Positions 61,691 through 63,908 of a DNA stretch of 64,000 nt are shown one piece after another. The position numbers were made by a program, and so were the translations under genes. The notes under the pieces are model-generated. The model searched no databases, was not told the DNA's origin, and saw nothing but the letters and a program-made list of their open reading frames with translations. The DNA comes from Escherichia coli. Its GTDB lineage: Bacteria > Pseudomonadota > Gammaproteobacteria > Enterobacterales > Enterobacteriaceae. Position 1 is the first letter of the stretch. Every line of letters starts with the position of its first letter. The stretch lies in the NCBI RefSeq assembly GCF_016026235.1, contig NZ_CP065613.1. One strand, written 5' to 3'.

Positions 61691-62389
61691 CTAACCCGTA
61701 ATCCCCAATAGTGCCGAAGCACTCGCCTTACCGCTCAACAACTCATTGGTCTTACCCTGCCAGGCGATGCGCCCGTCGGCGACCACCACCGAGCGTGTGG
61801 CGATCCGCGCCGCATCTTCCACACTGTGCGACACCATCAATAGCGTCATTTTTTGCTGCTGGCAGCTCGTGCTCACCAGCGTCAGCATCTCCTGACGTAA
61901 CGCCGGATCGAGCGCAGAGAACGGTTCATCGAGCAATAAAATCGGCTGTTCGCGCACCAGACAACGCGCTAACGCCACGCGCTGTCGCTGACCGCCGGAA
62001 AGCTCGCCAGGTAACCGCGCCATTAAATTATCAATCCCCATCTGGCGGGCGATAGCGTGCATTTTCTCCTGCTGTGCCGCGTTCAGTTTCAATCCCGGAT
62101 TTAGCCCCAGCCCGATGTTCTGCGCGACCGTCAGGTGACTGAACAGGTTGTTTTCCTGAAACAGCATCGACACCGGACGGCGTGACGGCGGCGTCGTGGT
62201 GTGATCAACGCCGTCGATAGTCAGCGAACCGCTGGCTGGCGTCAGAAAACCGGCGATCAAATTCAGCAGGGTACTTTTACCCGCGCCGCTTGGCCCGAGG
62301 ATTGCCACCTGCTCGCCGCGTTCTACCGTTAAGCTAAAACGCATCGGCAAATGGTGATAAAGCCAGGTGATATCAGTCAGTTTTAACAT
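61691..62389 (-). CDS. thiQ: Thiamine ABC transporter ATP-binding protein
   Basis: 232 aa from [18 protein letters not shown]..; Walker [10 protein letters not shown]. Confidence 0.95.
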
Positions 62390-63908
62390 TTCGCCCCGGT
62401 AGTTTTTCAATCACGGTAAACAGCAGAAAACAGAGTAGTAGCAGAATTAACGCGGTGACCGCACCGTCCTGGCTGCGATAGGAGCCAATTTGCTGGTAGA
62501 GATAAAACGGCAGGGTACGGAAATCATCGTTACCGAACAACGCCACTACGCCAAAATCACCAATCGACAGCACGCAGGCAAAAGCCAGCGCCTGCGCCAG
62601 TGGACGTTTCAGGGCGCGCAGCTCGACCACTTTTAAGCGCGACCAGCCTTCAATGCCCAGCGACTGACACAACATACTGTAGCGGGCGGTGATATCGCGC
62701 ATCGGGTTTTCCAGTACTTTCAGCGCATAAGGGATCGCCATTAACGCATTGGTGAAAATCACAATGCCGTCAGCAGATTGCGGCAGGCCAATGGTGTTGT
62801 TGAGCAGTAAAAAGAAGCCGGTAGCCAGCACAATCCCCGGCATGGCGAGGATCAACATGCCGCTCATCTCCAGCGCCTGACCCGCCAGCATTTTCTGCCG
62901 CGCCCGAAGTTCGCGACTGCTCCATAGCAGCATCATGGTCAGCACTACGCACAATACACCTGCCGCCAGCGCAATACGCAACGAGGTCCACAGCGCCTGC
63001 CACAGCACCGGTTGTGCCAGCACAATTAACACCGTGTCGCAAATGCGGCTATGCAGACGATCGTCCGGGTCGCGCCAGCCTTGCAGCAGCGTGGTGCCTG
63101 GCGCAATGGCCTTACTCAATCGCTGACTCAACAGTACCAGCCCAAGGCAACACACCATCTGGATCAGCGCCAGCATCGCCGTGCGGGCAGGATCGTAGTC
63201 GTAACTCAGCGCCTGATAAATAGCCAGCTCGATAGTGGTCGCCTGCGGACCGCCGCCCAGTGATAGCACGGTGGCGAAGCTGGCGAAACAGAGCATAAAG
63301 ATAAGTGCAGCAACCGGCGGGATTTGTCGCCGTAACCACGGCCATTCGACGAAGCGGAAAAAATGCCAGCCGCGCATCCCAAGCTGGGCGGCAAGCTGAC
63401 GTTGTTCGCTGGGAATGTTTTCCAGTGCCTGGAGTAATAAGCGGCTCGCCATCGGCAGATTAAAAAATACGTGCGCCAGCAAAATACCTTGCAGGCCGTA
63501 GGGCGAAAAGGTCCACTCCAGACCGAGCGATTGGCAGAGCGATGCCAGCCAGCCCTGGCGACCATAGACGCTAAGAATGCCGAAAACAGCAACCAGCACC
63601 GGGAGGATCAAGGTCATTGCGCACAGACGCAACAGCGCCAGCCGACCCGGAAAGCGCCTGCGATAGAGGGCGCGGGCGAGGAATATCGCGGGTACGACAG
63701 AGAGTAGCGCCGAGAGAAACGCCTGCCAGAAGGAGAAGCGCACCACATGCCACAGGTAGCTGTCCTGCCAGACTGCCACCCAGTTACCCTGCGGCGCGTT
63801 CCACCACAGGGCGAGAAACGCCGCGAGCGCAACCGCTACCACCAGCGTGGCGGCGCTTACACCTGGAATTAACCAGCCGGGAATTAACGGCTGACGGCGC
63901 GTTGCCAT
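62373..63908 (-). CDS. thiP: Thiamine ABC transporter permease (511 codons here)
   Basis: ATG start with an in-frame stop two codons upstream; 17-bp overlap with thiQ and 25-bp overlap with thiB. Confidence 0.9.

Follow-up and report, generated by a model that had tools for sequence, protein, structure and literature searches.

An in-frame deletion between short direct repeats in Escherichia coli thiP that has probably inactivated the thiamine importer ThiBPQ

Why is the thiamine permease gene at one end of this stretch of E. coli DNA 25 codons shorter than its K-12 counterpart, did the gene lose a segment or did the reference gain one, and does the shortened product still work? The importer concerned, ThiBPQ, was characterised by Webb, Claas and Downs (1998, as cited in PMC4112796). 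Its genes lie at the end of the window, by which we mean the whole 64-kb stretch of DNA that was analysed.

thiP and its operon in the window

The three genes of the importer are represented in the window as follows:

62373..63908, minus strand: thiP allele, an ATG open reading frame of 1536 bp including the stop, encoding 511 aa and carrying an in-frame 75-bp deletion
61691..62389, minus strand: thiQ (ATPase subunit), 232 aa, intact, with a 17-bp overlap with thiP
63884..64000, minus strand: thiB (binding protein), of which only the 3′ end falls within the window; it overlaps thiP by 25 bp

The product of thiP is the fused two-domain permease of this thiamine/TPP ABC importer, as judged from its NCBIfam match. 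The initial annotation had placed a thiP of 511 codons at 62373–63908 and had put the K-12 protein at 536 residues, and both figures hold: the listing of open reading frames gives a 511-aa ATG frame at that position on the minus strand, and MG1655 thiP (b0067, 72911–74521) measures 1611 bp, not 1536 bp, and encodes 536 aa, which makes the window gene 75 bp or 25 codons shorter. The ends of the gene are also where they had been said to lie. An in-frame TAG stands two codons 5′ of the ATG (translation D*RMAT), the thiB TAA at 63884–63886 creates a 25-bp thiB/thiP overlap with a ThiB C-terminus as in K-12, and thiQ starts at 62389, giving the 17-bp overlap at the 3′ end and a product that is 98% identical to K-12 ThiQ without gaps.

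The remainder of the operon is found on contig L003, a contig of the window lineage from the Logan assembly of SRR13627086. It holds a full thiB (327 aa) and, upstream of it, an intact TPP riboswitch (RF00059, 65.8 bits versus a gathering score of 54.3). The thiQ gene and the thiB end in the window, with L003 for the rest, place thiP in a thiB-thiP-thiQ operon under a TPP riboswitch. Because the deletion is in frame, it leaves the reading frame, thiQ, both gene overlaps and the translational-coupling arrangement untouched.

In NCBIfam profile searches the window protein scores 1118 bits against NF006953 (cut-off 970) and 925 against TIGR01253 (cut-off 395). The NF006953 match is split in two stretches, the first of which covers residues 1–298 of both protein and profile, and the continuous full-length match expected of ThiP, with two halves joined via TM7 and 12 transmembrane (TM) helices, is not seen with the window protein. 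A Pfam search returned the same BPD_transp_1 match for both thiP alleles and does not discriminate between the short and the full-length form. The K-12 protein (b0067, NP_414609.1) is the orthologue. Its gene lies in a thiB-thiP-thiQ operon as well, overlaps its neighbours by 25 and 17 bp as in the window, and outside the gap the two proteins are 98% identical. Compared with K-12 ThiP, the window protein is without residues 296–320, which make up the greater part of TM7 plus the periplasmic turn, carries the substitutions G167S and A243T, and displays 11 clear hydrophobic spans against 12. No description of this allele was found in the literature searched, and the databases list it under an ordinary product name.

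Anatomy, direction and rarity of the deletion

The initial annotation had put the length difference from K-12 down to one in-frame indel of 75 bp inside the gene, and had proposed an alignment with MG1655 thiP to localise it. Aligning the window gene with those of the closest complete genomes, of F8704-2 and of MG1655 bears the claim out as a deletion: there is one clean gap at gene nt 886–960, flanked by direct repeats of 8 bp, and the genes are otherwise equal in length. Any register up to 894–968 describes the gap equally well, and the residues lost are 296–320 (VLALLLLLPPLLAVIVDGVNRQLPE) or, equivalently, 299–323. In full-length thiP (F8704-2, K-12) the lost segment is bounded by identical copies of GTGCTGGC, one at gene nt 886 and the other 75 bp further on at 961, and the alignment reveals no extra or foreign sequence at the junction. 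The repeats can be placed in the window as follows:

63016..63023, minus strand: deletion junction with the single retained 8-bp GTGCTGGC copy (nt 886–960 are gapped in the window only)
62824..62831, minus strand: third in-phase GTGCTGGC copy, at nt 1153 of the full-length gene (from the repeat computation)

When random in-frame deletions in thiP were simulated, a flanking repeat of at least 8 bp was present only 0.4% of the time. Read from the sequence, the anatomy of the deletion is the signature of a short-direct-repeat event, be it slippage or microhomology. An ancestral thiP with two in-phase GTGCTGGC copies 75 bp apart has lost one copy together with the intervening DNA, either by strand slippage during replication or by short-homology repair. 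In E. coli, losses of DNA flanked by such repeats are reportedly a classical class of spontaneous deletion, known from work on lacI by Albertini, Farabaugh, Miller and colleagues. The window allele has in common with this class the identical 8-bp repeats bounding the segment and the one copy kept, and does not differ from it in anatomy. Neither the gene, an orthologue of K-12 thiP, nor the class of mutation is new in kind.

The survey of thiP length across E. coli that the initial annotation had suggested settles the direction of the change. We searched 5,426 complete E. coli genomes, of which 5,399 hold the region and 5,397 match at least 80% of its length and carry the segment. All full-length thiP genes examined are 1611 bp long (536 aa), and the closest complete genomes (99.8–99.9% identity) all span 1876 bp versus 1801 bp in the query. 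Beyond the species, 131 of 131 diverse full-length ThiP homologues (30–59% identity) have 19–34 residues in the 25 deleted columns. Since the closest relatives, the 5,397 complete genomes and the 131 distant homologues carry the segment, the long form is, by this sequence comparison, ancestral and the deletion belongs to the window lineage. An insertion or duplication in the K-12 reference was also considered and is ruled out by the same direction.

The allele is real and clonal but rare. Over 61655–64000, junction included, the window and the Logan assembly of SRR13627086 are 100% identical, and contigs of this type come from 7 samples. Four NCBI accessions (EHD3362576.1, HAI2281911.1, HBD0228753.1 and HGF4611114.1) stand for exactly the 511-aa protein, which occurs on 11 public contigs, one of them of 5.07 Mb, as the only sequence in its 90% cluster. 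A 46-bp junction probe, which full-length genes cannot seed, found the junction in 0 of the 5,426 complete E. coli genomes, its sole matches being two partial ones of 29 nt in NZ_CP082357.1 (VCSW7) and NZ_AP043621.1 (AST215), and a 26-nt junction pattern was found in 0 metagenome contigs. The genome probe, the metagenome pattern and the single-sequence cluster give no evidence that this exact 75-bp deletion recurs. Two further 511-aa ThiP entries, P0026 and P0035, were considered as the same allele and rejected, as they carry different 25-aa deletions (residues 274–298 and 310–334, respectively). As a separate observation, the 29-nt instead of 27-nt matches in VCSW7 and AST215 imply a synonymous GCG-to-GCA change that turns the left repeat into a 10-bp one (GTGCTGGCAC), which should make the same 75-bp deletion likelier in these two backgrounds.

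Over the neighbouring 25 kb, FDAARGOS_943 comes closest among the complete genomes (99.9% identity). Inside thiP the window differs from FDAARGOS_943 by 3 SNPs plus the deletion; the 27.7 kb outside the gene show at most 9 SNPs and a 6-bp indel. Two nonsynonymous SNPs in thiP are private, in that the alignment finds them in none of the complete E. coli genomes:

63410, minus strand: G167S (gene nt 499, G to A)
63182, minus strand: A243T (gene nt 727, G to A), at the start of TM6

Column 167 of ThiP is variable, with Ser in 9 of 132 sequences, and column 243 is conserved (Ala in 116/132, Thr in 1/132). Two private SNPs in the 1.5-kb gene versus at most 9 in the 27.7-kb flank is an excess that would hint at relaxed constraint on thiP, but it is not significant (Poisson P about 0.09 for at least 2 SNPs). 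The comparison with FDAARGOS_943 brought up two unrelated features elsewhere in the window. The 6-bp indel (CGATGG, window 38071–38076) lies in kefC and is present in the window and absent from FDAARGOS_943, whose kefC coding sequence is 1857 bp long, a shorter form that is probably private to that strain. At about 39950–41290 of the window (5244–6582 on contig L004) the closest relative is annotated, between folA and apaH, with a short CcdA-family antitoxin open reading frame, a hypothetical protein and a DUF4291 protein, and this stretch may be a small accessory islet.

The full-length gene is dense in repeats of the kind that bound the deletion. It contains 75 direct repeats of at least 7 bp spaced 12–300 bp apart, against 38 ± 6 in codon-shuffled thiP and 25.5 ± 5.4 in mononucleotide shuffles. 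Forty-seven of the 75 (63%) have a spacing that is a multiple of 3, and 22 fall in the densest 200-bp bin, nt 800–1000; the repeats consist of runs of Leu and Ala codons (CTG, GCG) that encode membrane helices. For the window as a whole, GTGCTGGC occurs 10 times in the 64 kb versus 3.1 ± 1.7 times in dinucleotide shuffles, none of 100 of which reaches 10, an excess that is probably a codon-usage effect of Val-Leu-Ala strings.

A protein search of public data recovered no fewer than 11 further alleles of E. coli-type ThiP that carry independent in-frame deletions, with the following extents:

residues 173–199, 246–296 (in two backgrounds), 246–306, 262–285, 274–298 and 274–302
residues 299–325, 310–334, 321–384, 329–368 and 339–385
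protein ids: P0025, P0026, P0028, P0035, P0036, P0040, P0041, P0044, P0045, P0049, P0071 and P0074

A search at the protein level recovers in-frame events only, so that the in-frame bias of this collection is partly due to the route of discovery. The alleles cluster at residues about 245–385, most are flanked by 5–13-bp direct repeats in the full-length DNA, and five coincide with in-phase thiP repeats of at least 8 bp. In P0074 the DNA between GTGCTGGC copies 2 and 3 is deleted. The 51-aa deletion of residues 246–296 is found in two sequence backgrounds, P0045 and P0049, which suggests, from sequence, that it recurs at an 11–13-bp repeat, TGCTGGCGCTG(CT). The allele lacking residues 246–306 (183 bp) is the same event as a de novo 183-bp thiP deletion, 'coding (742-924/1611 nt)', reported for isolate 5-34 of patient 17 (PMC7845604 supplement). 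The other public deletions and the patient 17 deletion resemble the window allele in gene, repeat-dense region and frame, and mostly in being flanked by repeats. Their end points differ every time, the window allele being a separate event, and it is also the most sampled, with 11 contigs versus 1 for most others. A dozen further clusters of 763-aa open reading frames (P0009–P0020) combine a permease with an ABC ATPase Pfam domain and look like ThiP joined to ThiQ (536 + 232 minus the overlap). Such fusions would presumably have arisen through a shifted frame or a lost stop codon where the two genes overlap by 17 bp; they stem mostly from Logan assemblies, with one on a 3.9-Mb contig.

Predicted effect on the permease

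The deletion takes the C-terminal 18 of the 29 residues of TM7, including Pro305 and Gly313, plus the periplasmic turn. Position 305 is Pro in 130 of 132 diverse ThiP sequences and position 313 is Gly in 106 of 132, and the combined length of TM7 and its loop is 43–59 residues across the family, mostly 50. What is left of the helix is:

63024..63056, minus strand: TM7 remnant, residues 285–295 (N-terminal 11 of 29), now abutting VLAQP and TM8 (AlphaFold2 models, hydropathy)

AlphaFold2 modelling of wild-type ThiP, for which a 132-sequence alignment was used, places the TM7 helix at residues 285–313 with pLDDT of 91–98, followed by a periplasmic helix (318–322) and TM8 (325–361). The model of the window protein has a 7-residue helical stub (286–292) running straight into the TM8 equivalent, with pLDDT below 50 at 276–284 and 290–297; it is confident elsewhere (mean pLDDT 90.7). 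AlphaFold is insensitive to destabilising mutations. Hydropathy points the same way as the low-confidence stretch: of the 12 Kyte-Doolittle peaks of wild-type ThiP, the deletion takes out the strongest (3.18, centred on residue 302), and near residue 298 the window protein rises to no more than about 1.5. By an estimate on the Hessa biological scale, applied without position dependence, the insertion energy goes from –2.7 kcal/mol for TM7 to at least +5.4 kcal/mol for the best 19-residue remnant.

Searching the PDB by sequence brought up no solved ThiP, only distant ModB-type permeases. In a fold search the best structural match of the wild-type model is FbpB of the Thermus thermophilus FbpBC complex (9j4r chain A; TM-score 0.77 over 510 columns), and ModB, SugA/B and PotB/C each match half of it. 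FbpB is a fused 12-TM pseudo-dimer like the wild-type ThiP model, but with only 20% identity and ferric iron as its substrate it is used here for architecture alone.

Judged by Pro305, pLDDT and insertion energy, the window protein has lost an element that is structurally indispensable and conserved family-wide. In this architecture TM7 leads the chain from the cytoplasmic side, where the first permease half ends, back to the periplasmic side, where the second half begins, and the remnant, predicted to be too short and too polar for a membrane span, would leave the second half without its normal topology. Insertion of the remnant into the membrane is not predicted. Because the loss of TM7 would deny the second half its normal topology, the ThiBPQ importer of this strain is probably inactive or severely impaired. 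Together these observations make it probable that a recent, clonal, microhomology-mediated in-frame deletion has inactivated ThiBPQ.

Such a loss would be tolerable. Strains of the Keio collection deleted for thiP, thiQ or tbpA are viable, and in a TPP-riboswitch reporter their IC50 for thiamine rises from 0.032 μM to 0.9–1.5 μM (0.93 μM for thiP; PMC4112796). Like the Keio thiP deletion strains, the window strain would live on low-affinity entry and on de novo thiamine synthesis, the genes for which are located beyond the window. The allele has persisted enough to be sampled in several isolates, which counts against inactivation at first sight; such persistence implies that the deletion is not strongly deleterious, as is expected for a dispensable gene.

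Alternative explanations and significance

Three other explanations have to be weighed against inactivation by a genuine deletion. That the 75-bp gap is an assembly or sequencing artefact, a collapse between repeats, might be entertained since the junction sits exactly at a short repeat, where mis-assemblies can arise. An 8-bp repeat is, however, far shorter than reads or k-mers, and the identity of the independent SRR13627086 assembly across the junction, the recurrence of the contig type in 7 samples, and the four accessions and 11 contigs (one of 5.07 Mb) that share an identical protein exclude an artefact for practical purposes, leaving it a negligible chance. It is less far-fetched, yet still improbable, that the shortened ThiP works, with the hybrid segment serving as a short substitute TM7 or the chain crossing the membrane packed on other helices, and that the allele is a neutral length polymorphism. 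The deletion is after all in frame, none of the 11 contigs has a broken open reading frame, the remnant retains moderate hydrophobicity (the Kyte-Doolittle value of about 1.5 at residue 298), the remainder of the protein models with high confidence, and the NF006953 score lies above the equivalog cut-off. Against this, 0 of 131 diverse homologues are without the segment and TM7 plus its loop never falls outside 43–59 residues, the near-invariant Pro305 is gone, the junction has pLDDT below 50, the predicted insertion energy is at least +5.4 kcal/mol, the allele is in 0 of 5,426 complete genomes, and a further private substitution hits the conserved Ala243.

The remaining alternative accepts that the importer is lost and holds that its loss is positively selected, the repeat-rich TM7 hot spot supplying in-frame knock-outs that are favoured in some niches. 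Benefits could be that toxic thiamine analogues are kept out or that a cost is saved when thiamine is not limiting, and strains deleted for the transport genes thiP, thiQ or tbpA do respond more weakly to the analogue triazolethiamine (PMC4112796). The many independent in-frame deletion alleles in E. coli also speak for selection, as does the finding that thiP and tbpA were each hit twice in the infecting population of a single patient (PMC7845604 Table 3), and so do the three private changes in the 1.5 kb of thiP versus 9 SNPs in the adjoining 27.7 kb. However, each allele is a singleton or a tiny clone, which fits mutation pressure with weak or no selection and not sweeps; in patient 17 one thiP hit and one tbpA hit, that is one of the two hits per gene, are the same 15-kb deletion (PMC7845604 supplement); the SNP excess falls short of significance; and the way the alleles were found, by protein search, admits in-frame events only. 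Selection on the repeated loss of thiP helices is therefore unlikely, and we consider both this account and the benefits proposed for it very doubtful. Only a slim chance can likewise be given to the bolder variants, that the TM7-region hot spot yields non-polar knock-outs transiently favoured in some host niches, or that an 11-helix ThiP with a truncated linker helix transports; a transporting 11-helix ThiP would, if true, show a topology without precedent among type I ABC importer permeases.

Inactivation by deletion remains the reading we prefer, and the window allele is an ordinary, rare, strain-specific lesion that probably inactivates a dispensable importer. PGAP-style annotation calls the 511-aa product a normal thiamine permease though it very probably fails, and because the annotation names a normal permease, thiamine uptake would be wrongly assumed in metabolic models of these isolates. 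In addition, the junction cleanly marks a small clonal lineage of E. coli near FDAARGOS_943, O39:NM F8704-2 and E110019. On its own the allele matters little. The wider point is that a repeat-dense thiP repeatedly sheds helices in frame, and the gene may serve as an example of how Leu/Ala-rich membrane-protein genes with biased codon use come to hold in-phase short repeats, between which whole helices can be shed in frame.
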